24,047 bases of DNA from an uncultured Acidiferrobacteraceae bacterium (GCA_964496605.1 CAZCAK010000001.1:1-24047); one strand, 5' to 3'. Positions 93-23,732 are shown, counted from the first letter of the stretch. Notes: generated by a model not told the origin, from the sequence alone. Made by a program: numbers and translations.

Positions 93-674
93 TCATTGAC
101 CGATCTTGGTTTCGCGTCCGCTGATGAGATTGCGCATATTGCTGCGGTGACGCCAGAGCAATAACGCGGACATGAGGCTTGTCACCACAAGATAAGCGCT
201 GGTAGGCACCAGCCAATAGACATAGAGCGGCGCCAGAACCGCGGTGATCATCGCCGCCAGCGACGAATAGCGAAACACCAGTGCGAGCGCAATCCAGGTT
301 GCGGCTAATAAAAGCCCGAGCCAAGTATTGAGCCCGAGAAAAACACCAAGCGCGGTCGCAACGCCTTTGCCACCACGAAAGGCAAAAAACACTGGAAAAA
401 CGTGACCGAGGAACGCCGCCAGCATCACCGCGGCGATCACTGTCGGCTCGGCACCGACGGCACGTGCGATGAGCACGGGGATCACGCCTTTAAGGATATC
501 GCCCAATAGCGTGAAGATGGCGGCTTTTTTGCCGCCAACGCGTAGGACATTGGTGGCACCGGGATTACCGGAACCGACCTTACGCGGATCTTGCAGACCC
601 ATCGCACGCGAGACCAAAATCGCCGCGGAGATCGATCCCATCAGATACGCAATAAACGTCAACCAATAGAGCAC
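93..674 (-). CDS. plsY: Glycerol-3-phosphate acyltransferase PlsY
   Basis: Motifs YLMGSI, GSGNPGATNVLR, DILKG, GHVFPVF..FRGGKGVAT. GTG start with AGGAGG upstream. Confidence 0.96.
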   Translation of the reverse strand: MLYWLTFIAYLMGSISAAILVSRAMGLQDPRKVGSGNPGATNVLRVGGKKAAIFTLLGDILKGVIPVLIARAVGAEPTVIAAVMLAAFLGHVFPVFFAFRGGKGVATALGVFLGLNTWLGLLLAATWIALALVFRYSSLAAMITAVLAPLYVYWLVPTSAYLVVTSLMSALLLWRHRSNMRNLISGRETKIGQ

Positions 675-796
675 CGCTTCCTCCTGCCAAGACAGCCTCG
701 GCGTTTTTCGTTATAGTGGATCGCAGCCGCCGATACAACGCCGACCATCACCGCGCCTTCTATTCACTACTAGCCTTTTATTATCAATAGCCCCGA

Positions 797-1165
797 ATGG
801 ACATTATTTATTTACACGATTTAAAGATCGACTGCGTCGTCGGTATCTGGGCCTGGGAGCGTCAAACCACTCAGCGCGTCGTATTCGACCTCGACATGGC
901 GCTCGACGTGCGCAAGGCCGCGGCACGCGACCACATCGACGATACCGTGAACTATAAAGCCGTCGCCAAGCGCATCATTGCCTTCGTCGGCGAATCGAAA
1001 TTTCAATTGGTCGAAACCTTGGCGGAGCAAGTTGCGGAACTCATTGTGCGCGAGTTCGCGGTCGAGTGGGTGCGGTTGCGGGTAAACAAGAAAGGTGCGA
1101 TTCGCGGCGCCGCCGATGTCGGCGTGATTATCGAGCGACGCCGTTCCGATGTGAAATCGTTATAG
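797..1165 (+). CDS. folB: Dihydroneopterin aldolase
   Basis: GIWAWER, DTVNY, FQLVETLAE, VRLRVNK and VGVIIER motifs; divergent from plsY as usual. Confidence 0.95.
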   Translation: MDIIYLHDLKIDCVVGIWAWERQTTQRVVFDLDMALDVRKAAARDHIDDTVNYKAVAKRIIAFVGESKFQLVETLAEQVAELIVREFAVEWVRLRVNKKGAIRGAADVGVIIERRRSDVKSL

Positions 1166-1999: not shown

Positions 2000-3187
2000 A
2001 TGAACACCGTCGACCGTGTCATCGCGACAATGAATGCCCGCGTTGTCGAAGGTTTGCCATCACCGAGCCCCGACGAACGCGCCCTCTCGGACCGGTTGGT
2101 GGCGCGCATCGTACAAGAAATTACCAAATGCCATGCGATCGACTTTGCACGCTTTATGGAGCTTGCCTTGTACACGCCGGGCTTGGGCTATTACAGCGCC
2201 GGCCGGCAAAAATTCGGCGAAGGCGGCGATTTCGTGACGGCACCGGAATTATCGCCGTTATTTTCGCGCATGCTCGCGCGTCAATGTGCCGAAATATTGC
2301 TTGAGCTTAGCGGTGGCGACATTCTCGAATTCGGCGCCGGCAGCGGTGCCATGGCGGCGACCATACTCGCGGAGTTGCAAGCACTCAATGCGGTACCCCG
2401 GCGCTATGCCATCCTCGAACTCAGTCCGGACTTGCGCCAACGCCAACAGGCGCTTATTCGCGAACGGCTGCCGGCGTTGTTCCCCCGAGTCGAATGGCTC
2501 GACCAACTGCCCGGTTCCTTTCGCGGCGTTGTACTGGGTAATGAGGTATTGGACGCAATGCCGGTGCAATGTTTCATCGTCACTAGCGACGGTGCGCGCT
2601 TGCTCGAAATTGCGCAGACTCGGGGGCGTTTTTTTTGGCAACTCGGCGCAGTCGCGCGGGACATCGATGAGCGCATCGCCGCTTACGCCTTGCCGATCGG
2701 TTATGTCTCGGAGACAAATGGGCACGCCGAGGCCTGGGTACGCAGTATCGGCGATCGGCTTGAAGCCGGCGCGATACTCCTCGTCGATTACGGCTTTCCG
2801 CGCGCCGAGTTTTACCATCCGCAACGCAGCACCGGCACGCTGATGTGCCATTACCGGCATCGCGCCCACGGGGATCCACTGATCAATATCGGTCTGCAGG
2901 ACATCACCGCGCATGTTGATTTTACTGCCATGGCGGAGGCGGCATCATCTACCGGGCTCGATGTGCTCGGCTATTCCAGCCAGGCGGCGTTTTTGCTGTC
3001 ACTCGGAATTGCCGACGCCATCAACGATAGTACGCAGCCCTTGCCGCATCTGATCCTCGCACAGCAAATCAAAAAGCTGACTCTGCCTTCGGAAATGGGC
3101 GAGCTATTTAAGGTCATCGCCTTCGGACGTGGGCTGGCGTCGCCGCTACGCGGTTTTCAAATGCAAGACCGTCGCAGTCGTTTGTAA
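2000..3187 (+). CDS. SAM-dependent methyltransferase, MidA/NDUFAF7 (DUF185) family
   Basis: FARFMELALYTPGLGYY, GDFVTAPELS, LEFGAGSG, NEVLDAMP, DYG, QDITAHVDF. Start could be 2000 or 2030. Confidence 0.88.
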   Translation: MNTVDRVIATMNARVVEGLPSPSPDERALSDRLVARIVQEITKCHAIDFARFMELALYTPGLGYYSAGRQKFGEGGDFVTAPELSPLFSRMLARQCAEILLELSGGDILEFGAGSGAMAATILAELQALNAVPRRYAILELSPDLRQRQQALIRERLPALFPRVEWLDQLPGSFRGVVLGNEVLDAMPVQCFIVTSDGARLLEIAQTRGRFFWQLGAVARDIDERIAAYALPIGYVSETNGHAEAWVRSIGDRLEAGAILLVDYGFPRAEFYHPQRSTGTLMCHYRHRAHGDPLINIGLQDITAHVDFTAMAEAASSTGLDVLGYSSQAAFLLSLGIADAINDSTQPLPHLILAQQIKKLTLPSEMGELFKVIAFGRGLASPLRGFQMQDRRSRL

Positions 3188-3198
3188 TGGTATAAAAT
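3188..3198 (+). promoter_or_regulatory. Candidate extended -10 element for the lactonase gene
   Basis: TGGTATAAAAT (TGn-TATAAA) just after the methyltransferase stop and about 45 nt before the GTG at 3243. Confidence 0.4.
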
Positions 3199-3242
3199 TG
3201 CCGGGCGCCACACGGGCGTCTTGCCGAAAAAAGGAAAACACC

Positions 3243-4097
3243 GTGAATAAAATCGTTTCGCAAATCTTGGTTCTTGGAGTCGTCGGACTCGCGGCCATCG
3301 GTTGCGCGCACAAACCCGCGGCACAAACAAACGTCGGACCGAAGCTGTACGTCATGAATTGCGGCACCATCGATATCGCCGATATCTCGGTGTTCCGCCC
3401 GGGACAAAACATCGGTGAGCACAAACGGTTTACCGATTCTTGCTACCTCATCGTGCATCCGAAGGGAACGTTGATGTGGGACACCGGCCTACCGGACGCG
3501 CTTGCGGAAAAACCCGCCGGCGTGACCATGGGGGTGTTCACCGTGAGCGTGCAAAAGCCGCTGCTGCCACAACTCAAGGCGATCGGCTATCCACCGCAGG
3601 ACATCGACTACGTGGCGTTCTCACATATGCATATGGATCACGCCGGCAATGCCAATGCCTTTGCGCGCTCAAAGCTGATTATGCAAGAAGAGGAGTACCG
3701 CGCCGCATTCGGCCCCGAGCCGAGCAAATACCGTTTCGATCCCAACTCGTACAGCAACCTCAAAGCGAGCCCGGTTAAATTATTGACCGGTGACTACGAT
3801 CTCTTCGGCGACGGTACCGTCGTCATTCGGCGCGCACCGGGACATACCCCAGGGCACCAAGCCCTGTTTTTAAAGCTGGCCAAGACCGGCAATATTTTAT
3901 TGTCCGGCGATTTGGTGCACTTCACCGACAACTGGCTCGAGAAGCGCGTACCTTCGTTCAATTACGACAAGGAGCAGTCTTTAAAAACGATGCAAGACAC
4001 CGAGAAGTTTTTGAAAGATCATCATGCGACGTTATGGATCCAGCATGATCTCGAGCAAAATCAAAACATCAAACACGCGCCGGAGTATTATGAATAA
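3243..4097 (+). CDS. N-acyl-homoserine-lactonase-family metallo-beta-lactamase-fold hydrolase, predicted lipoprotein (284 aa)
   Basis: HMHMDH (HxHxDH, 3624-3641), GHTPGH, SGDLVH and C-terminal WIQHD. Start moved from 3129 to GTG 3243 (AAGGA upstream), giving MNKIVSQILVLGVVGLAAIG-C, a lipobox-like signal. Confidence 0.82.
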   Translation: MNKIVSQILVLGVVGLAAIGCAHKPAAQTNVGPKLYVMNCGTIDIADISVFRPGQNIGEHKRFTDSCYLIVHPKGTLMWDTGLPDALAEKPAGVTMGVFTVSVQKPLLPQLKAIGYPPQDIDYVAFSHMHMDHAGNANAFARSKLIMQEEEYRAAFGPEPSKYRFDPNSYSNLKASPVKLLTGDYDLFGDGTVVIRRAPGHTPGHQALFLKLAKTGNILLSGDLVHFTDNWLEKRVPSFNYDKEQSLKTMQDTEKFLKDHHATLWIQHDLEQNQNIKHAPEYYE

Positions 4098-4207: not shown

Positions 4208-6733
4208 TTACCGCCGCAATCTCAAATAAATCTCGGGCAATTTTTTCGGCAATTGATTCACACGATCGATCACCATGTAATGTCCAGCACCGAATATTTT
4301 CGGTAAATATTCCGCGCCGGCGGGATCGAGCGTGATGCAAAACGGATGCACGCCCTGATCGATCGCCTCCTTCACCGCCATGCGCGTATCTTCATGCAAA
4401 TATTTTTCGTCGCCGCCATCATCGTAATCGGCCGGTCGACCATCCGAAAGGATCATGAGCAATCGTCGTTGACTCGGCGCGTCGCTAAAGCGATGCACCG
4501 CGTGACGAATCGCCGCACCCATGCGCGTGGCGAGGCGCCCGGATAAGCCGCCGATCAGTGCGCGCGCCTTCGTGTCGAGGCGGCGATCGAATGTCTTGAT
4601 CGGATAATAGCTAACGTTGTCGCGATATTTAGACGCAAAGCCGGCAATGGCGTAAGGGTCGCCGACCTGTTCCAAGCTTTCGGCGAATAGTAGGATCGCC
4701 GCACGCAATCGATCGACGATCCGCCCTTCACCTTCGCTGGTCTTGGCCATGATCGAGGTCGAGATATCGGCCAACAATAGGCAAGCAGTATCGCGCTGCA
4801 TGAAGTGCCGTCGCCGATATAACGCCGGCTTCGGCGATAAGCCGGCACGTTTTTCCGCGACATACTGAATCGCGGCTTCGATATCCAGCTCGTCGCCGTC
4901 CAATTGGCGTCGCTGCGGCGCCGGGCGTGTCGGCTTTTGCATCTGAATCGCGCGCTTGAGCCGCTGCAAACTATTGGCGTGTTGTGCGAGTAAGTTATTC
5001 GCCTCCGTAAGATCGGTCTCGTCGAGCTCGCGCTCCTGCACCCAGGCCCAATTACGCTTAAACGCGCCATCGCGATAGTCCCATTCGTGATAGGCAACGC
5101 CTTGCGCGCTGTGATCGCGACCGCGCGCGTATCCAATGACATTCGCCGGTTGCGGAATGCCGACGCCGACACGGCCGCCGGTACCGCTAGTGTCCTCCGG
5201 CGGGATGTCGAAATCGGGATCGTCGCCTTGCGCGGCCTTAGGGATGTCACGCGCGTCGGGATTCGGTTTGATCTCATCTTTTTTGACGATGTCGTCGCGA
5301 TCGAACGTACCGGTACCGAATTCAGCATCGTCGAGCTCGGCGCGTGGATAGATCGCGCGCGCGGCATTCGGCCCGCGCGCCGGTAAATAACAATCCGCGC
5401 GCAGTTTGAGTTCGGGAATTGGCGGTAGGTTGGTGTCGCGATACAGCACATTGGCAATATTGAATGCGTCCACTATCGTGGCGTCGCGACGAAGCAATGG
5501 CGTCAGCCGCGCATCCAGCGTCTCAAGCCCGAGCGCACCCATGAGGGTCGCGCGCGCGAACAGATAATATTCACGCGCCGGCGATGCGCTTGGGGTTTGT
5601 GCTTGCGCCAGACGATACAAGCGCGCCAAATGATTCGGTACTTGCGCATTGATCGCATAGTCCACGCGCAAATCTTCGCAAATATCGAACAACAGCTGAA
5701 AGCGCAACATATTATCGCCATAGTGCGCAAACAGCGGCCGCCAGGTGATACGTTGCCGATCATCGAGTGGTGGGTGCTCGCGTCCGACGGTGCGAAATAA
5801 AGCCTCGATATAGCGTCGCTCGTAGGAATGAAACGCCAAGTGCCCGGCCGCATGAATCACTGCCGTCAGCGCCTCATCGCGCGTCGGCAAGGCCGCCGGT
5901 AAATACAGGCTGCGAGCGTCGGTTTCGATGAAGGCACGCCCTTGATCCGGCGTCCAGCCACTGTCCTCGAACTCAACGCGCTCGCGGAACCACACCGCGG
6001 TCACAAGTTGCAATAGCCGCTGATGTTCCGCTAAGCGAAACCCCGGCATGTGTTCCAATAACAGCGCCAGACTTTCCGGTGTCTCTAAGCGAAAGAACGC
6101 CTCGCCGCGCAAGCGGCCCGCCTGCATGATGTCGGCGCCGCGCTGGGCCCACGGGCGCACCGACTCGACACCCAATAAATCGCGCACGCGAATCGCGCCA
6201 CGCAAGTAGCTCCCGAGCGCCAGTCGACGTTGAAACAATTCGTCCGCAGGGGCCAGTAGCGCCTCGATCGCGGCAATACCGGCACCGCCAGTAAACTCAC
6301 CGATATCGGTACGAAAGTAGGCAATGCCGCTATCGAGATGGCGTGCGCACCAGTCAAGCCCGATTTCGGCCCAGCGCACCTCGCCGGTGGCGCCGAGCTG
6401 CGCGTACGCCTGCGGCAGCTGTTGCATGAAACCCTCGAGCGCCTTGTATGAGCCGCGCCATTGCGCAAAATTCAGCGCCTGTTCAGTCCAGGGCCGCACG
6501 GCATTGGCGGCTTGCGCCGCGGCGATACTGCCACGAATAAAACTTTTACCAGCGTCGCGATCATGCATGAATAACGTTTTGCACGCGTTGACCCATAGCA
6601 ACGCCGTGGCGGCGCCGAAACGTTCGATCGCCGGCAGCGCTGCGGCGGTATCGCGATGCGCAACGAAGCTGATCTCTTCCAGATCAACCAGGACTTGCTG
6701 AATCGCGGCGAGTGTTTCTAATTCTGACATCAT
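4208..6733 (-). CDS. CbbO/NorD-type von Willebrand factor A domain protein (AAA+ adaptor), 841 aa
   Basis: YHEWDY motif, DGDELDIEAAI, MIDAS DISTS ... TRMGAAIRHA ... LSDGRPAD, C-terminal LPKKLPEIYLRL; directly downstream of a CbbQ-type ATPase. Confidence 0.88.
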   Translation of the reverse strand: MMSELETLAAIQQVLVDLEEISFVAHRDTAAALPAIERFGAATALLWVNACKTLFMHDRDAGKSFIRGSIAAAQAANAVRPWTEQALNFAQWRGSYKALEGFMQQLPQAYAQLGATGEVRWAEIGLDWCARHLDSGIAYFRTDIGEFTGGAGIAAIEALLAPADELFQRRLALGSYLRGAIRVRDLLGVESVRPWAQRGADIMQAGRLRGEAFFRLETPESLALLLEHMPGFRLAEHQRLLQLVTAVWFRERVEFEDSGWTPDQGRAFIETDARSLYLPAALPTRDEALTAVIHAAGHLAFHSYERRYIEALFRTVGREHPPLDDRQRITWRPLFAHYGDNMLRFQLLFDICEDLRVDYAINAQVPNHLARLYRLAQAQTPSASPAREYYLFARATLMGALGLETLDARLTPLLRRDATIVDAFNIANVLYRDTNLPPIPELKLRADCYLPARGPNAARAIYPRAELDDAEFGTGTFDRDDIVKKDEIKPNPDARDIPKAAQGDDPDFDIPPEDTSGTGGRVGVGIPQPANVIGYARGRDHSAQGVAYHEWDYRDGAFKRNWAWVQERELDETDLTEANNLLAQHANSLQRLKRAIQMQKPTRPAPQRRQLDGDELDIEAAIQYVAEKRAGLSPKPALYRRRHFMQRDTACLLLADISTSIMAKTSEGEGRIVDRLRAAILLFAESLEQVGDPYAIAGFASKYRDNVSYYPIKTFDRRLDTKARALIGGLSGRLATRMGAAIRHAVHRFSDAPSQRRLLMILSDGRPADYDDGGDEKYLHEDTRMAVKEAIDQGVHPFCITLDPAGAEYLPKIFGAGHYMVIDRVNQLPKKLPEIYLRLRR

Positions 6734-6784
6734 CAGCGTAGCAACTTGTCGCTACCAGCACCGTTGCCGATCCAGACACGGGGT

Positions 6785-7636
6785 CTAAAGCGCCTCACTA
6801 AAATGTGCGCGCATAATTTCGCGCATCGCCTCGGCGAGCTCGGCATCGTCGGTAACCGGATTTATCAGGGCGACTTCGCAGGCATCGAGCGGTGACAGGC
6901 CGGCCGCAATCATGTTTGCGGCATAAACTAAGGCACGCGTCGAGGTCGCTTCCTGCAAACCATGATCCTTGAGTACCCGCGCCTTGCGACCGGCGGCGAC
7001 AAGCTTGTTGATGATGTCGTCGCTTACGCCGGCGGCTTCATTTTTGACAACCTTGCGTTCGATGGCCTCGTTCGGATAGTCAAAATTAATACCGATGAAA
7101 CGCTGCTTGGTTGATGGCTTCAAATCTTTCAACACGGTTTGGTAACCAGGATTGTAGGAAATAACCAACATAAAATCTTCATGCGCCTCGATTTCCATAC
7201 CGCGCTTTTCCAATGGCAATTGGCGTCGATGATCCGTCAACGGATGAATCACCACGGTTGAATCGGTGCGTGCCTCGACGATCTCGTCGAGATAACAAAT
7301 CGCGCCGACCTTCACCGCGCGCGTCAGCGGCCCGTCTTGCCACACCGTCTGCTCGCCTTCTAACAAGTAACGCCCGACCAGATCCGAACTCGTCAGATCT
7401 TCGTGGCACGACACCGTGACAAGTGGCTTATTCAAGCGATGCGCCATATATTCGAGAAAGCGGGTCTTACCGCAACCGGTCGGTCCCTTGAGCATTACCG
7501 GTAAGCGCTTCTTGTAGGCCGCCTCGAAAATCACAACCTCGTTGGCCTGCGGTTCGTAATACGGCGCATCGCCGCTGCGCGGCTGTTGAATAATGTCGCG
7601 CTCGACACCGCGTAGGCGATTGATGAAATTCTTCAT
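6785..7636 (-). CDS. CbbQ/NirQ/NorQ-family MoxR AAA+ ATPase
   Basis: PYY..EV.IFEAAY..RLPVMLK, Walker [21 protein letters not shown], Walker [37 protein letters not shown]. Confidence 0.93.
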
Positions 7637-7693
7637 GTGGCCTCAATCATGGAACGACAGCGGGCGCTCATGATAGCGGCGACGCGTCGAAAC

Positions 7694-8917
7694 TCAATGC
7701 GCCGTCGCAAACGCGTGTTTGGCAGCTGCAATCGCGGCGATGCGCTGCGCGCGGATTTGTTTTCCGATGGCGGCGCCGCTGGCACCAGGTTCGACCGTCG
7801 CGATGCCAATGTCTTTGGCGGCGTTGAATGCACGCATCAATAACGCCGCCTGTGGATAGGCGCGCTCTTCAAGGCCGGCGCGTCCGCGCGCGTCCGCCTC
7901 GCATGCGAGCGTGAACATTTGCGCGCGCTCCGGTTTACGAAACGCGTTCACGCCCTCCAAGGTCTTTAAGATGGTTTCCGGCTTGAGCTCCAGCACGCGA
8001 TGGCAGTGCAAATGATAACGGCTGACGACCTCGGCGAATTCGCGGTAATCGGTCGGTACGCGAAAACGCTGACAGAACCTGCGGATAATCTCGACGCCGC
8101 GCTCCTCGTGACCGATGTGTCGCGGCCACTCCGCCCGCGGAGTCGCGCCCTTACCGAGATCATGTACCAGGGCAGCGAAGCGGATGCGGACATCCATCGT
8201 CAAACGTGCCGCCTGGCGCAAGACCATGAGCGTGTGCACACCGGTATCGATCTCGGGGTGATGTTGCGGCGGTTGCGGCACGCCGAATAAGGCCTCTAGC
8301 TCCGGAAATAATTCGGCGTTCGCGCCGCAGTCCCGCAGCACCTCAAAAAAAATCCACGGTGCCTTTTCGCCCAGGGCGCGGCTGAGCTCCGCCCATACGC
8401 GCTCCGCCACCAGCGCCTTCATTTCGCCGGCGCGCACCAACTGGCGCATGAGTTCGAGCGTTTCATCGGCGATGCGAAACTCGAAACGCGCAGCGAAACG
8501 TGCGACGCGTAATACCCGCAGTGGGTCTTCCACAAATGCCGGGCTGACGTGACGCAAAATGCCTTCGCGCAAATCCTCCACGCCGCCGAACGGGTCGATC
8601 AGCGCGCCGTCCTCATCTTCGGCCATGGCGTTAATCGTGAGATCGCGCCGCGCCAAGTCCTGTTCTAGAGTGACGTCCGGCGCGGCGTATACGCTAAAGC
8701 CTTTATACCCTGGCCCAGTCTTGCGCTCGGTGCGCGCCAGGGCGTACTCGTATTTGGTCTGAGGATGCAGAAATACCGGGAAATCGGCGCCGACCAGCTT
8801 GAAACCGCGCGCGATCATTTCGTCCGGCGTTGCGCCGACCACGACGTAATCGCGGTCTTTAACCGCCAAACCGAGTAACCGATCGCGTACCGCGCCGCCA
8901 ACCAGATAAGTCTTCAT
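7694..8917 (-). CDS. cca: Multifunctional CCA tRNA nucleotidyltransferase with HD phosphatase domain
   Basis: [48 protein letters not shown]. Confidence 0.97.
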
Positions 8918-8974: not shown

Positions 8975-9211
8975 TTAACGCTTTTTGCGGCTGCTGCGCT
9001 TCTGCGTCGTGCGCTTGCGCGTGCTGCGTTTTTTCTTGGTCGTGGACTTCTTTTTCTTGGTGCCGCTTTTTTTCTTGCCGGTCTGTTTGTACGACATACC
9101 GGCCTTAGTCAGCGCGATGGCAACCGCCTGTTTTTGCGGCTTGCCGTGGTGTACTTCGGTTTTGATGTTTTCACTTACCGCCTTGCGGGATTTTCCGGAT
9201 TTCAACGGCAT
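8975..9211 (-). CDS. Small, very basic hypothetical protein (MPLKxGKS...KPQKQAVAIAL core plus K/R/S/T-rich tail)
   Basis: ATG with AGAGG SD. The N-terminal 38 aa resemble a small-protein family I recall from bacteria and phages (unverified). 29 of 78 residues are K/R and 2 are acidic. Confidence 0.75.
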   Translation of the reverse strand: MPLKSGKSRKAVSENIKTEVHHGKPQKQAVAIALTKAGMSYKQTGKKKSGTKKKKSTTKKKRSTRKRTTQKRSSRKKR

Positions 9212-9263
9212 AAGGCCTCTTTACAGTTTTGTCCGCGGCAAAACTAACACCGTTTAACGCCAA

Positions 9264-11528
9264 TCACGTGAGACTTACGACGGAACCGGAGGCGACCCGC
9301 TTCAACATCGGCTTGCTGTGTAGATGCGCGAAGCGGCGATGCGGCACGTTCGCCGACGGCATACCGACGTGATAACCCTGAATGTAGTCGACCTTATAAC
9401 GCTTCAGCAGGTTAATCGTCGCCTCATCGCGCACGAACTCGGCAATCACTTCCTTACCCAAAGCCTTCGCCACCTGTGCAATCGCGCGCACCATGGCTTG
9501 GTCCATCGGCTCATGGGCCATGTTCTCAATGAACGAACCGTCAATCTTGATATAACTGACCGGGAAATGTTTCAGATAGCTAAAGGAGCTGAAACCGACG
9601 CCAAAATCGTCGAGCGAGAAGCGACAACCGGCATCGATTAAGGTCTGCATCAGGCGCCGCGCCTTGTCCATATAGCGCACCGCGATTTGTTCGGTAATTT
9701 CGAATACCACCGCCGCCGGGGGGATGCCGAGCGCTTTTAAGCGCTCGGTAATGAGCTGAACGATCGCCGGGTCTTCCAGGCTCTGTCCGGACAGATTAAT
9801 CGAGAAGGTGACATCGCGTCCGTCGCGGCGAAAATGCGCTAGAGCCTCGAGCGCGTGTGCGATGACCCAGCGATCGATATCCGCCAGCAGACCGAAACGC
9901 TCCGCGACGCCCAAGAAGGCCGTGGGCGAAGACGCGTGGCCGTGGCCGTCCGGCATGCGCAATAGCACCTCGTAATACTCGTGCTCCGGGCCGTTCAACG
10001 CCATGATCGGTTGATACACCAAGCGGAAACTATTGTCTTTGAGCGCATGCTTGATTTGCTCAGCCCAACCGATGTCTTTCGACGTGTTGTCGAGCTCGTG
10101 CTGACTCTTTTCGTATAATTGATAACGATTGCGGCCGCTATTCTTGGCGTCGTAGCACGCGGTATCGGCATGCAGCATCGCCTCCTCGGCATTGAGGCAT
10201 TCCGGCGTGATCATGGCCACGCCGATGCTGCAACAGACATTGAACGTTTGCTGATTGCCGACAAAGTAGAAATTGCGCATCAAGTCCATCAATAGCCGTG
10301 CCACTTCCATGGCGCCAGTACGCGTGACACGGCGCACCAGTACCGTAAACTCGTCACCGCCGAAACGCGCGATCGTGTCGTTCTCGCGCAAGCGCGTCTT
10401 AATGAGCTGCGCCACTTGTACCAGCAGTTTGTCGCCCTCGGCATGGCCGAGCATGTCGTTGACGTACTTAAAGCGGTCCAAGTCGATGAACAGCAACGCG
10501 CTGGCACCGCCCTCAGCCTTCACCCGCGTGATCTCGGCCGCGAGTAAATCGGAAAAATACTTGCGGTTATAAAGACCGGTCAGCGGATCGTGTTCCGCCA
10601 GACGACGCAGGGTCGCATCGCGCTCTTTGACCGCGCTGATCGTCGCGTTGAGCGCGATGCCGATGGCGGCGATTTCGGCGTCGCCCCGTTCCGCGACACT
10701 CACGTCGGTATCACCGTGCGCGAGCCGGGTTAACGGTGTTTGCAATTCGGTTAGAGGATGCAGCGCGCGCTTAATCAGCTTGCGGCCGATACCGATCGCG
10801 ATTAGAAATACGATGGCCGTCAGCATGCTGCCGAAGGCGATGCTCTTGGCGAGCGAATCGCGGTGCAGGTTCGGGTCGAGCCCGAGATCGATATACCCGA
10901 GTATGCGCGTTTGTTCGCCGCCGACTGCATCCAATCGGAAATTCAATAGGCCATCGGCATCGATGTAACGCGCCCGCACCGGGGCGATCACGCGCACATA
11001 ATGCGCCCCCAGATGCGAGCGCTGCACCGGGACGCTGCGGTCAAACAAAAAGGGCCGATCCTTGGCGGCTTGTCCCTTCAAACTCGAAAGCTGGTCCGCG
11101 TGCAACGCCGGAATATGAGCGGCGCGATCGCCATATTGGCGCAGCATGCGGCCGCGGGCGTCATAGAAACGGACGAACGCGATCTCCGGAAAATTCTTGA
11201 TACGATTTTCGATGTACGGCGGGTTACCACCGCCGACACCGTAAAGTGTCGAGCCGAAATCTTCCATTTCGGCGATCCATTGCAGCGCCTGCTTTTCCAA
11301 GCTGTCCTCAATCAGCCGACTGGAAGTCCACCAAAGTCCTAAGACACCGATGAGATAGATAATGAGCGCGCCCGAGACGAGCAAGATAATAAGGCGCGTC
11401 ACCAAACTGCGATTGCGCCGCGGCACGCAACGATGCATGCACCACTCGACCGCACGATGCGCCGCGTGATCGAGCGACCAACGTGCATTGGGAACCAAGT
11501 TCTGTGTTACCGCTTGATTAGCTGTCAT
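9264..11528 (-). CDS. Membrane-bound diguanylate cyclase/phosphodiesterase (TM-periplasmic-TM-HAMP-GGDEF-EAL), about 754 aa
   Basis: HDPLTGLYNR, DLDRFKYVND, REND-x5-GGDEF (intact I-site and active site), EVLLRM, FEITE, DDFGVGFSS, KIDGSF, QGY. Start moved to 11528 (AAGGA SD), overlapping the upstream stop. Confidence 0.9.
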   Translation of the reverse strand: MTANQAVTQNLVPNARWSLDHAAHRAVEWCMHRCVPRRNRSLVTRLIILLVSGALIIYLIGVLGLWWTSSRLIEDSLEKQALQWIAEMEDFGSTLYGVGGGNPPYIENRIKNFPEIAFVRFYDARGRMLRQYGDRAAHIPALHADQLSSLKGQAAKDRPFLFDRSVPVQRSHLGAHYVRVIAPVRARYIDADGLLNFRLDAVGGEQTRILGYIDLGLDPNLHRDSLAKSIAFGSMLTAIVFLIAIGIGRKLIKRALHPLTELQTPLTRLAHGDTDVSVAERGDAEIAAIGIALNATISAVKERDATLRRLAEHDPLTGLYNRKYFSDLLAAEITRVKAEGGASALLFIDLDRFKYVNDMLGHAEGDKLLVQVAQLIKTRLRENDTIARFGGDEFTVLVRRVTRTGAMEVARLLMDLMRNFYFVGNQQTFNVCCSIGVAMITPECLNAEEAMLHADTACYDAKNSGRNRYQLYEKSQHELDNTSKDIGWAEQIKHALKDNSFRLVYQPIMALNGPEHEYYEVLLRMPDGHGHASSPTAFLGVAERFGLLADIDRWVIAHALEALAHFRRDGRDVTFSINLSGQSLEDPAIVQLITERLKALGIPPAAVVFEITEQIAVRYMDKARRLMQTLIDAGCRFSLDDFGVGFSSFSYLKHFPVSYIKIDGSFIENMAHEPMDQAMVRAIAQVAKALGKEVIAEFVRDEATINLLKRYKVDYIQGYHVGMPSANVPHRRFAHLHSKPMLKRVASGSVVSLT

Positions 11529-12480
11529 GACGATCCTTCGCATTGAATGCTGCCGAGAGATCCTTATTCGCGACCGCAGCCGGTGCCGCGGCCCGAGGAG
11601 CCGAGATTTTCGCCTGTCGTAGCGATAAGATATTCGGACCGGGAATCGCATCGCCACGCGTATTCGCGGCGGCGATTAAACGCTGGACCACCAAGGTCGC
11701 GATGTCATCCGGTTCGGCATTTGCCGTCAATTGACCGCCCCAGGCACGATCGCCATTGACCAGCAATACCTGGCGCGCGCGCTGCGGCGATAGCATCTCG
11801 CGTAATACCGTGCGGCTGAGTACGCGGTTGTCCGGTAATACCCACCAGGCCCGAATTTCGCCGTTGCGCTCAAATGTGCGCAGCGTCGTCAAATCGGAAT
11901 CGGCGAGAAAATGCAGCAATTGTATGCCTTGGCGCGCAGCAGCGAGGCGCGCTTCGTTAATCACGGCATCGAGTCCGCTGCCGGTAATGACGCCGACACG
12001 ATCCAGGCGCGGATTCATTTTCTTCCAAGCGCGGAATTGCTCCTCGACCGCGGGCACCATGCTCACACCCTTCATCCACGGGCGCGGCAGATTCGCATCC
12101 ATATAATTGAACACCTGACAGAACACGATCTTCTTACGCGTCAATCGATGCGCGAGTTGCGCCGCGGGCAATCCGACCGCGGCCACCAGCGTCCGTGGGC
12201 TCGATTGCAGCTGAGCCTGCAACGCCGCGTCCGCTTGGGCTTGACCAGTAAGGCGATAGACTTCGACCGGGCCTGGCCACTGTTTCACAATACCGGCCAT
12301 GACCCGTCCGAACGGCGCCGAGGCGTCGCTTGCGATCACGATAAGCCCAGCGCCCTGGGCCGCGGTGGTATTCGGTGGCGAAGCGGTTTCGTGCAACTTG
12401 GACGGGCCGGCGCATCCCATGACTAGGACCAGCGCGCCTAAGAACGCGCAATACAAAGCGTTAAGCGAGTGAGCGGCCAT
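11518..12480 (-). CDS. Periplasmic ligand-binding (ABC substrate-binding-like) lipoprotein
   Basis: Hydrophobic signal ending LVLVMG-C; LVAAVG..AAQ, IVFCQVFNY, GVSM, RVGVITG, WWVLPDNRVL segments resemble ABC_sub_bind-type proteins. Start 12480 or 12522. Confidence 0.6.
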   Translation of the reverse strand: MAAHSLNALYCAFLGALVLVMGCAGPSKLHETASPPNTTAAQGAGLIVIASDASAPFGRVMAGIVKQWPGPVEVYRLTGQAQADAALQAQLQSSPRTLVAAVGLPAAQLAHRLTRKKIVFCQVFNYMDANLPRPWMKGVSMVPAVEEQFRAWKKMNPRLDRVGVITGSGLDAVINEARLAAARQGIQLLHFLADSDLTTLRTFERNGEIRAWWVLPDNRVLSRTVLREMLSPQRARQVLLVNGDRAWGGQLTANAEPDDIATLVVQRLIAAANTRGDAIPGPNILSLRQAKISAPRAAAPAAVANKDLSAAFNAKDRHDS

Positions 12481-12686
12481 GGCTGAGGTGGCCAGCTTCA
12501 ACACAGTAGCGCCTGCTGGCATCCGACTTAGGTCGGAACGTGAACCTGAGCGGCGGCTACGGGCGGATGAGCGGCAAGCTGCAAGGGGTCGTCTAACCGC
12601 CTATCCTTAAGGTATCGATTTACTAAGGTTTCTGGCCACGACCGGTCCTATTACGAATGGCACAGTATTTGAAATCTATTTTTCAT

Positions 12687-22448: not shown

Positions 22449-23672
22449 TTAGAATTGATGCGCGGCATGCGCGCCGAGCGAGAACTCGTATTGCATCCAT
22501 ACCGCGTTCACGTTTTTGTCGGCGAGTTGCGGCGCGAAGTCGCGATTATATTGCACGCGCAATTTACTGAACTCGGTCGGATACCAAGTGAGATTCGGCG
22601 CTAGGCGCCAACGTCGATTGCGCAGCGCATCGCTCGCGTCGCCGTTATTCGCCGTGGCATATTCGCCGCGCAAGGCCGCGACCCAGCCGGGCTTGTAGCC
22701 CCACAATACCTGCGTGTAGGCGCCATTATCTTTCAGCGTTTCGGTCGGCGTTTCGTAATTGCGCCATAGCCATTCGGTTTGCCAGGCGGTGAACGGGAAG
22801 CCGCGTGTGTTCTGTGCCGCCTTGCGCTTCACATACCAATCGACACCGAAGATATTCGTATTCGTATCGGTACCGGTTCCATTCGGACCGTGCAATGCGG
22901 ACATGCCGATATTGGCGCTGGTTTCGTCCGAGACATCGATGCCATTGAGCCAGCGCGCCGACCATAAAAGATCGCCGAAGCCGCGCGCGCCTTGGCGATC
23001 GATCAGCGTATGACCCGCGACCGTCTCGCCCGGATTCCACAGAAAGCTCGTCAGCGTATCGCCGCCGGCGTTTTGTGCGCCGAGATACAACTCCGAATAC
23101 CAAGGCAAGGGCGTCAGCCACGACACGCGTGCGCCGGTGCTGCGCAATCCGTCGGCGCCGAAAAAGCGCGTCAACACGATCGGCTGATCGACGAAGGCCC
23201 AGACGTGCGGATGTTGCGGATTTTGCCGACCGAATTCGGTGAAGTACTGTCCAGTTTTCACTTGCAGGCCGGCGGGCAAGGCACGCGTCAGTAGATACGC
23301 CTCCTCCAACTCGACGGCGGTCGCGCCGGTATCGTCGATGAGCGTGACGATATTCGCTTGGGCGTCGAAATAAGGATCGACCGCGCCACCGGCAATCAGC
23401 TCTAAGTTTTGCACGGTGAAGCCGTTGCGACGCGGATCATGCCCGCCGCCTTCGACGGTGCGCAGATCCGGATCGTTCACACCGGCGCCGCCGAAACTAA
23501 ACGTACCGGTTAGTCCGAGATTGAACGGTTGGCCGCTATTGGTTTGGCCGCTACTCGCGTTAACACCTGGCGCCGTAGACGACGGCATGGCGGCGTTATC
23601 GCTCGGCGCCGCGTTCGCGTCCAGGCCGGCAGTGCTACCGGCCAGTAATAAACACAGTGCATAAACACGCAT
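22449..23672 (-). CDS. Putative outer-membrane beta-barrel with His motifs, associated with metal uptake (407 aa)
   Basis: Signal peptide, alternating aromatic strands, terminal Phe; GGHDP, ELEEAY, GRQNPQHPH and GAHAAHQF motifs. Start moved to 23672 (GAGGAG SD). Confidence 0.7.
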   Translation of the reverse strand: MRVYALCLLLAGSTAGLDANAAPSDNAAMPSSTAPGVNASSGQTNSGQPFNLGLTGTFSFGGAGVNDPDLRTVEGGGHDPRRNGFTVQNLELIAGGAVDPYFDAQANIVTLIDDTGATAVELEEAYLLTRALPAGLQVKTGQYFTEFGRQNPQHPHVWAFVDQPIVLTRFFGADGLRSTGARVSWLTPLPWYSELYLGAQNAGGDTLTSFLWNPGETVAGHTLIDRQGARGFGDLLWSARWLNGIDVSDETSANIGMSALHGPNGTGTDTNTNIFGVDWYVKRKAAQNTRGFPFTAWQTEWLWRNYETPTETLKDNGAYTQVLWGYKPGWVAALRGEYATANNGDASDALRNRRWRLAPNLTWYPTEFSKLRVQYNRDFAPQLADKNVNAVWMQYEFSLGAHAAHQF

Positions 23673-23693
23673 AGAGAACTCCTCAATGAGAAC

Positions 23694-23717
23694 ATGAAAT
23701 AACCGCCAGACCGGCGG
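23694..23717 (-). terminator. Terminator/attenuator-like hairpin between the uORF and the outer-membrane gene
   Basis: Minus strand CCGCCG-GTC-TGGCGG followed by TTATTTCAT. Confidence 0.5.
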
Positions 23718-23732
23718 CGGCACAATGCGAAT

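Follow-up and report, generated by a model that had tools for sequence, protein, structure and literature searches.

AAA+ ATPases of the MoxR class that work with a von Willebrand factor A (VWA) protein are, to our knowledge, tied to a few clients only, namely Rubisco, nitric-oxide reductase, chelatases, CO dehydrogenase and methanol dehydrogenase. Here we analysed such a pair, termed Q (the ATPase) and O (the VWA protein), encoded on a 24,047-nucleotide stretch of DNA from an uncultured Acidiferrobacteraceae bacterium (GCA_964496605.1, CAZCAK010000001.1:1-24047). This stretch, referred to as the window, is contig C1 of a metagenome-assembled genome (MAG) of 540 contigs and 2.3 Mb that is 88.7% complete. 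The pair represents a distinct, compact fourth paralogous branch of the CbbQO/NorQD family, and on balance the evidence leans towards a client tied to a module of lipoate-dependent sHdr-LbpA sulfur oxidation that also contains a histone deacetylase (HDAC)-type deacylase and an aldo-keto reductase (AKR).

The closest described systems are the CbbQO activases of Acidithiobacillus ferrooxidans (Q1O1 and Q2O2) and Halothiobacillus neapolitanus (CsoCbbQ/CbbO), with structures under PDB 6l1q and 5c3c. As in the window, their Q carries AAA_5 and CbbQ_C domains, their O ends in a VWA domain with a metal ion-dependent adhesion site (MIDAS), and the gene for Q precedes that for O. Binding of CbbO to Rubisco is mediated by the VWA domain, and CbbO occupies the concave side of the hexamer (PMC8718961). 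NorQD shares the MoxR plus VWA architecture, and NorD possesses a 'finger' that inserts into the pore (PMC13036017). A third likeness comes from Sutter et al. (2015; PMC4633670), who noted CbbQ homologues of carboxysome-containing autotrophs whose genes lie apart from the Rubisco and carboxysome loci and which group in a clade of their own. The window pair fits this class by description, but the paper went no further than noting it and defined neither a partner O type nor a conserved neighbourhood, a phyletic link or a function.

Architecture and phylogeny of the Q-O pair

Q (6785..7636, minus strand) is a 283-aa CbbQ-type protein in which an AAA_5 core (PF07728, 117 bits, E 8e-34) is followed by a CbbQ_C lid domain (PF08406, 95 bits, E 3e-27; aa 193-277), the arrangement of the CbbQ/NirQ/NorQ MoxR AAA+ ATPases. 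A first-pass annotation of the window had described it as an intact MoxR ATPase with Walker A, Walker B and Arg finger. Both Walker motifs can be read directly (Walker A GPTGCGKT, aa 51-58, nt 7463-7486; Walker B ICYLDE, aa 113-118, nt 7283-7300, both on the minus strand), whereas the Arg finger follows from a gap-free alignment to solved CbbQ and not from residue-by-residue placement. Against solved CbbQ structures Q scored 350 (6l1q) and 343 bits, and against NorQ structures 315 (9qh4) and 307 bits.

O (4208-6733, minus strand) is the 841-aa VWA/MIDAS partner and is encoded in the same direction, behind a spacer of 51 bp (6734..6784, minus strand). Both reading frames are open, and the two genes are probably co-transcribed. 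All genome counts given here come from a single 400-genome sample of the class, with totals stated as 400 or 401; in 20 of the 20 sampled carrier genomes, the PF08406 match of Q ends at most ~550 bp upstream of the O match. The VWA domain of O (PF00092, aa 654-819) and the conserved C-terminal tail LPEIYLRLRR, which has its counterpart in NorD, together occupy aa 649-840 (4214..4789, minus strand). The intact MIDAS claimed for the VWA partner stood up: the five residues are present as D656-x-S658-x-S660, T736 and D764, and among 41 O homologues D656, S658, S660 and D764 are invariant and T736 is nearly invariant. With a C-terminal VWA domain, a complete MIDAS, a linker, an N-domain and a position next to Q, O has the makeup of the CbbO/NorD VWA adaptors.

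An AlphaFold2 (AF2) model of O had a mean predicted local distance difference test score (pLDDT) of 80.5. Residues 1-230 (6044..6733, minus strand; pLDDT ~95) form a predicted N-terminal helical-repeat domain, and the part encoded at window positions 6074-6601 consists of stacked helices of ~10-35 residues (pLDDT ~95), consistent with such a domain. This region lacks a NorD counterpart but has a distantly homologous region in canonical CbbO (hhalign). Judged from the model, the first ~230 residues of O are thus an addition relative to NorD. They are followed by a mixed alpha/beta N-domain (aa 232-471; 5321..6040, minus strand), which AF2, Foldseek and hhalign indicate to be equivalent to the N-domain of NorD and CbbO. 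Within it, H294-x3-H298 and E353-D354-x-R356 (window positions 5674-5854) show no or almost no variation across the 841-aa family, and the equivalent residues of canonical CbbO, H263, H267, E292, D293 and R295, are all invariant. From this conservation, H294, H298, E353, D354 and R356 look like a functional site shared with CbbO, possibly a metal-binding one; we found no description of this His/Glu-Asp-Arg site in the literature examined.

A linker predicted to be disordered (aa 472-542; 5108..5320, minus strand; pLDDT <50) corresponds to the NorD linker that is remodelled by NorQ. It leads to a predicted beta-hairpin (aa 546-567; 5033..5098, minus strand) with strands at aa 546-552 and 557-567. 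All five residues of the hairpin motif E550-W-D-Y-R554 (E550, W551, D552, Y553 and R554) are invariant in the family, and by analogy the hairpin is a candidate equivalent of the pore-inserting NorD finger. Helices fill the model between the hairpin and the VWA domain. By sequence, NorD in the PDB is matched only by the C-terminal 300 aa of O (E 1e-36), and in Foldseek searches the VWA domain of O matched the NorD VWA domain 9qhd_G (E 3e-14), while whole NorD models aligned to O from aa 201/232 to 841. Residues 232-841 therefore cover the whole NorD fold of N-domain, disordered linker, hairpin and VWA domain, and the finger-in-pore and linker-remodelling mechanism of NorQD probably carries over.

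Pairwise, the N-terminal 540 aa of O can barely be aligned to canonical CbbO (E 0.002). Because a profile-profile alignment (hhalign) of the O family with CbbO extends over 757 columns (probability 100, E 2.8e-75, 26% identity), the comparison identifies O as a deep, full-length paralogue of CbbO. The family is compact, since a search of 1.84 billion proteins with the N-terminal 470 aa (E<=1e-3) returned only 56 representatives, of which about six are full-length clusters. The homologues, all of ~840 aa, come from Sulfuriferula, Acidiferrobacterales, Ectothiorhodospiraceae, Thioalkalivibrio, Pelomicrobium and Burkholderiales MAGs and are publicly named 'NorD', 'VWA domain-containing' or 'hypothetical'. 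In the genome sample, the N-domain of this 841-aa family occurs in 21 genomes from 16 GTDB families, with one copy each.

We gathered the Q and O paralogues of 20 sampled carrier genomes together with reference loci and labelled the clades by gene context. A maximum likelihood tree of 56 Q proteins resolved four well-supported clades. The first comprises Q proteins encoded beside cbbLS or cbbM, with partner O proteins of 747-821 aa, and the second those beside norC-norB, with O proteins of 612-643 aa. The third is found beside QmoA/QmoB-like genes, with O proteins of 717-1029 aa. The fourth clade (23 rows, support 100/99) holds the partners of the 841-aa-type O, including the window Q; it is sister to canonical CbbQ (98/90) and separate from the norCB-linked NorQ clade. 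A tree of the C-terminal regions of O recovered these four clades in an identical unrooted topology, with support of 99 for the clade of the window O. Identity to the window Q is 69-78% within the family and 51-61% for all other Q paralogues. The window pair consequently lies outside the Rubisco-linked clade, in a separate sister clade, and the separate CbbQ/O subfamily that had been suspected from the window alone is supported. In Sulfuriferula nivalis both types are present, a canonical cbbL-cbbS-cbbQ-cbbO operon (Q 267 aa, O 775 aa) and, separately, a 282-aa Q with an 843-aa O. Compared with CbbQO, the window-type O is ~65 aa longer, and neither cbbLS or cbbM nor carboxysome genes adjoin the pair.

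The trees also bear on a role as a NorQ/NorD-type maturase whose client, a nitric-oxide reductase or some other haem-copper oxidase, would have its genes elsewhere in the genome. Such a role would suit the 315-bit match of Q to NorQ, the match of the C-terminal 300 aa of O to NorD and the presence of aa3- and cbb3-type oxidases in the genome. However, the bona fide norCBQD loci of the carriers form their own well-supported clade with O partners of 612-643 aa; NorD has no counterpart of the 230-aa helical N-terminal domain; the pair lies beside norCB in 0 of 24 family loci; and no NorB was found in the assembly, in which a COX1-family search returned only the aa3 CoxA and cbb3 CcoN oxidases. 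We therefore regard a maturase of this type as very improbable.

Conserved module and relocation of the pair

Collecting the neighbourhoods of homologues, a check proposed with the first-pass annotation, revealed a conserved module in most of 24 family loci. These were taken from the sampled genomes and from separately fetched genome or metagenome records and cover at least 12 of the 16 GTDB families of the sample; in GC-rich loci, genes were chosen by scoring GC3 minus GC2, a criterion that recovered the gene calls on record for one locus (L010). The typical order is radical SAM, FadL-like, c10, c5, LplA-like, c7, c2 (divergent), c3, Q, O, HDAC-family and AKR, and among the 24 loci c2 was found in 19, c3 in 15, AKR in 14 and HDAC in 10. 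The radical SAM protein is LipS2-like (NF053743, 200 bits, under the model cut-off of 270) and the ligase carries an LplA/B catalytic domain; the LplA-like and radical SAM genes adjoin the module across at least 10 GTDB families. Genes of such kinds are known from the pathway that assembles lipoate for sHdr-LbpA sulfur oxidation (PMC6067878, PMC10332631). Pfam and NCBIfam gave nothing for c2, c3, c5, c7 and c10, and searches of the ESM Atlas with c3, c2 and c7 returned 'hypothetical protein' clusters only, with weak leads to HEPN/RnlA-like, Ig-like and CheY-like proteins.

None of these usual neighbours is present in the window. The pair is no true orphan, since in ~15-19 of the 24 related loci it lies within the conserved set by the lipoate-assembly genes, and in this genome the rest of the set is located on contigs C21 and C195. 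Contig C21 contains c7 (89-487), c2 (571-891, minus strand), c3 (1073-1498), HDAC (~1537-2679) and AKR (2676-3824), that is, the usual order minus Q-O, and between the end of c3 at 1498 and the start of HDAC at ~1537 there is no space for the pair. The radical SAM gene, FadL, c10 and c5 lie on C195. Because C21 retains c7-c2-c3-HDAC-AKR with no Q-O between c3 and HDAC, the pair has been relocated in this lineage, out of the module and to a housekeeping locus beside cca. The genome of this sHdr/LipS2 organism thus holds the 841-aa-type O with Q, c2, c3, HDAC and AKR, with Q-O physically unlinked from the set. The position between cca and a Methyltransf_28 gene is common to a 69%-identical metagenomic homologue and to a genome of the same order (G293). 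The relocation is thus an old event, after which the pair has stayed intact.

Relocation raises the prospect that the pair is a decaying, functionless remnant, separated from its usual partners and surrounded by housekeeping genes. Both frames are nevertheless open over their full length with all catalytic and MIDAS residues intact, and the arrangement shared with the 69%-identical homologue and with family f3 of the same order speaks for long retention, which makes decay hard to credit.

Reduced forms of the module exist as well. The complete genome G147 has a remodeller-free version, c5-c7-c2-AKR, without Q, O, c3 and HDAC (L106, C1:484000-500000), and G266 carries c2-c3-HDAC-AKR beside a LipS2-like gene, with no O detected (L108, C359). 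Near HDAC-AKR on C21 there is also a gene for a LysR-type regulator (5517-6566, plus strand), and orthologues recur a few genes downstream of the module in four other loci (L017, L034, L039 and L043), with 55-66% identity between genomes. We considered this regulator as a CbbR and rejected the assignment, as it is only 37-39% identical to the CbbR of the same genome.

Candidate clients in the carrier genomes

A LipS2-like gene occurs in 31 of 400 genomes and in 21 of the 21 carriers, and c2 in 24 of 401 genomes and 20 of the 21 carriers. Rubisco is likewise present in 21 of 21 carriers, against a background of 180 of 401 genomes. Because the same complete overlap is set against 31/400 for LipS2 and 180/401 for Rubisco, in a sample whose genomes are related to one another, the family is nested in LipS2-bearing sulfur oxidisers much more tightly than in Rubisco-bearing autotrophs.

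This pattern also bears on whether c2, c3, Q, O, HDAC and AKR make up a self-contained system, perhaps with its own LysR, whose substrate is unrelated to lipoate and sHdr and whose lipoate neighbourhood is inherited synteny. That c2, c3, HDAC and AKR occur together with no lipoate gene immediately adjacent on C21, in G266 and in G293 would fit such a system, as would the orthologous LysR downstream of the module and on C21, and ten LipS2-positive genomes lack the family. The LipS2-like gene is, however, found in every carrier, and the adjacency to LplA-like and radical SAM genes persists over at least 10 GTDB families, so that we consider a lipoate-independent system quite unlikely.

The first-pass annotation had stated that no client gene lies nearby. 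Although this is correct for the window, the genome as a whole offers candidates. The genome-wide search that it had proposed for Rubisco and nor genes recovered two form I Rubiscos and no NorB. The first Rubisco is carboxysomal and lies on contig C160, where a DabB-like gene is found upstream of form IA cbbL-cbbS and a CsoS2 fragment comes after them; further carboxysome genes are on C51. The second, form IC-like, is split over C408 and C124 and consists of cbbR, cbbL, cbbS and a bona fide CbbX (TIGR02880, 535 bits). In this second locus, CbbX is followed by TauE and a beta-carbonic anhydrase. The sHdr-LbpA core is located on C67, where a gene for an HdrB-like protein with two CCG domains precedes two GcvH-like genes.

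Two further genes of the Q/O type were found, a Q on C115 (1127-1936, minus strand), behind which a dienelactone hydrolase takes the place of an O, and an O on C266 (1011-3122, minus strand), of at least 704 aa and cut by the contig end. Neither qualifies as a missing canonical activase, because the C115 Q falls into the Qmo-linked clade of the Q tree and the C266 O into that of the O tree. In this third orphan type (loci L074, L076, L077, L083 and L078), the pair is divergent from two genes arranged like QmoA/QmoB, one for a 447-aa FAD oxidoreductase and the other for a 750-aa HdrA-like/FlpD (MvhD) protein. It is likewise a CbbQ/NorQ-family pair that lies beside neither Rubisco nor nitric-oxide reductase in the same genomes, but the window pair differs from it in clade, O length and neighbours.

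The main rival to a client in the sHdr-LbpA module is an additional, unlinked Rubisco activase, that is, a divergent CbbQO that would release inhibitory sugar phosphates from a form I Rubisco of the genome, for example the carboxysomal form IA or a non-encapsulated pool. The sister position of the Q clade to canonical CbbQ and the homology of O to CbbO along its full length agree with this, as does the presence of Rubisco in all carriers; since Rubisco is common in the class sample, the last of these discriminates weakly. CbbL tails of the type KLDXXHK or KLDXXXR have been tied to CbbQO interaction and the short KLDxx tail to activase-free Rubiscos (PMC8718961). The form IA CbbL of this genome ends in KLDAQKR, a KLDXXXR-type tail linked to CbbQO dependence, and no canonical cbbQ or cbbO was found in the 88.7%-complete assembly. 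Because the MAG is incomplete and G293, from the same order, has canonical Q genes linked to the carboxysome and to cbbM, this absence is unsafe as evidence. Gene neighbourhood offers the activase little: Rubisco lies within 10 kb of only one of 26 family loci, in S. nivalis, where the O gene is ~3 kb from cbbR-cbbLSQO.

Other carriers also speak against an activase. Most have the 841-aa-type pair alongside a canonical cbbQO, and in G025, G314 and G364, each with a single Rubisco, the canonical cbbQO lies 8-10 kb downstream of that Rubisco in addition to the 841-aa-type pair. The pair also accompanies Rubiscos that lack a CbbQO-type C-terminal tail: carriers G135 and G192 have a short-tailed (KLDxx) form IA CbbL and no canonical CbbQ, and their other Rubisco is form II-like in G135 and a CbbX-served form IC in G192. 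Taken together, we judge an additional Rubisco activase to be unlikely, and the client is probably neither Rubisco nor nitric-oxide reductase. A distant or unknown client, as proposed in the first-pass annotation, is thus borne out insofar as the client is not adjacent, and the evidence now points away from the two clients established for related pairs.

For a client tied to the sHdr-LbpA/HDAC/AKR module, which we slightly favour, several observations have to be set on the other side of the balance. Some of the evidence cited for an activase counts here too, namely that all carriers have Rubisco, that the clade is sister to canonical CbbQ with O a CbbO paralogue, that the genome's own form IA CbbL has a CbbQO-type tail with no canonical cbbQO found in an incomplete assembly, and that the S. 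nivalis O gene is close to a Rubisco operon. In five sampled carriers (the present genome, G000, and G293, G021, G192 and G351) the pair lies apart from the module, G147 retains c5-c7-c2-AKR without Q and O although its genome is complete, and the family is missing from ten LipS2-positive genomes; the link to sHdr and lipoate is not obligatory. Furthermore, the relatedness of the sampled genomes means that the counts overstate independence. In the literature on sHdr/LbpA with CbbQ, MoxR or von Willebrand, including PMC10332631, PMC6067878 and PMC6382920, we found no mention of the pair or the module genes.

Surroundings of the pair, proposed mechanism and meaning

The two-gene unit lies between cca (7694-8917; NF008137, 634 bits), its neighbour on the Q side, and a gene for a lactonase of the metallo-beta-lactamase fold (3129-4097, plus strand) on the O side, as first annotated. 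In the 57-bp gap between cca and Q (7637..7693, minus strand) and its margin, a promoter scan gave a single weak sigma-70-like match upstream of Q (7697-7670, minus strand), with a site count at or below the shuffled expectation; that this match is the promoter of Q is only a possibility. Among the remaining open reading frames (ORFs) of the window, those with a family match are housekeeping genes, namely plsY, folB, SDR, Methyltransf_28, a GGDEF-EAL protein, an aminopeptidase, an RRM protein, an epimerase, SLT, Aldedh, an OmpA-like protein, a methyltransferase and znuBA, and three ORFs had no Pfam match (8985-9257, 11518-12522 and 22449-23723). Family matching of the window ORFs found no Rubisco, carboxysome or norCB gene, in agreement with the earlier reading of the window. 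A sequencing-run search listed the window DNA in four DNA datasets of one groundwater-metagenome study and in no RNA dataset.

Two neighbours deserve a remark of their own. As listed, the lactonase ORF begins with a GTG start that overlaps the end of the Methyltransf_28 gene. Because a lipoprotein-like signal, LVLGVVGLAAIGC, is found ~37 residues in, the true start probably lies downstream of the listed GTG, and export of the enzyme is probable. Directly upstream of cca, a large HAMP-GGDEF-EAL membrane signalling protein is encoded (9264-11657, minus strand), which is unrelated to the Q-O pair.

Because the corresponding elements of NorQD and CbbQO are all present in Q and O, we infer a mechanism of the same kind. 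Q would act as a MoxR-class AAA+ hexamer with O as its single cognate VWA/MIDAS adaptor. By analogy with NorQD and CbbQO, the pre-VWA hairpin and the C-terminal tail of O would plug into the Q ring, and the MIDAS site would grip an acidic residue of the client. ATP hydrolysis would then pull or twist the disordered O linker and so open the client for entry of a cofactor or metal or for exit of a ligand.

A more specific proposal, which we put forward tentatively, is that this Q/O branch serves sHdr-LbpA as a dedicated chaperone in assembly or repair, opening an sHdr subunit or the LbpA carrier for the insertion of a metal or cofactor or for the reset of the lipoyl-lysine. MIDAS-mediated capture combined with ATP-driven pulling on the linker would open the client, and a mis-acylated or damaged lipoyl-lysine might be reset by the co-encoded HDAC-type deacylase and AKR.

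The branch described here has its own adaptor architecture, conserved partners (two to four small proteins that match no family, an HDAC-type deacylase and an AKR) and a tight tie, both genomic and phyletic, to the lipoate-dependent sHdr pathway. The public records of the family show the risk of transferring names, and annotation of its members as 'Rubisco activase' or 'NorD' calls for caution. Since the pair can leave the module and persist, genomic context alone can mislead as well. Assembly of the sHdr pathway is under active study, and the module genes can be tested as candidates for a step of maturation or repair that is missing in sulfur oxidation. If the pair is indeed a chaperone of sHdr-LbpA, this would add a third client class to the CbbQO/NorQD family and supply a maturation step so far missing from a pathway of sulfur oxidation that is widespread.

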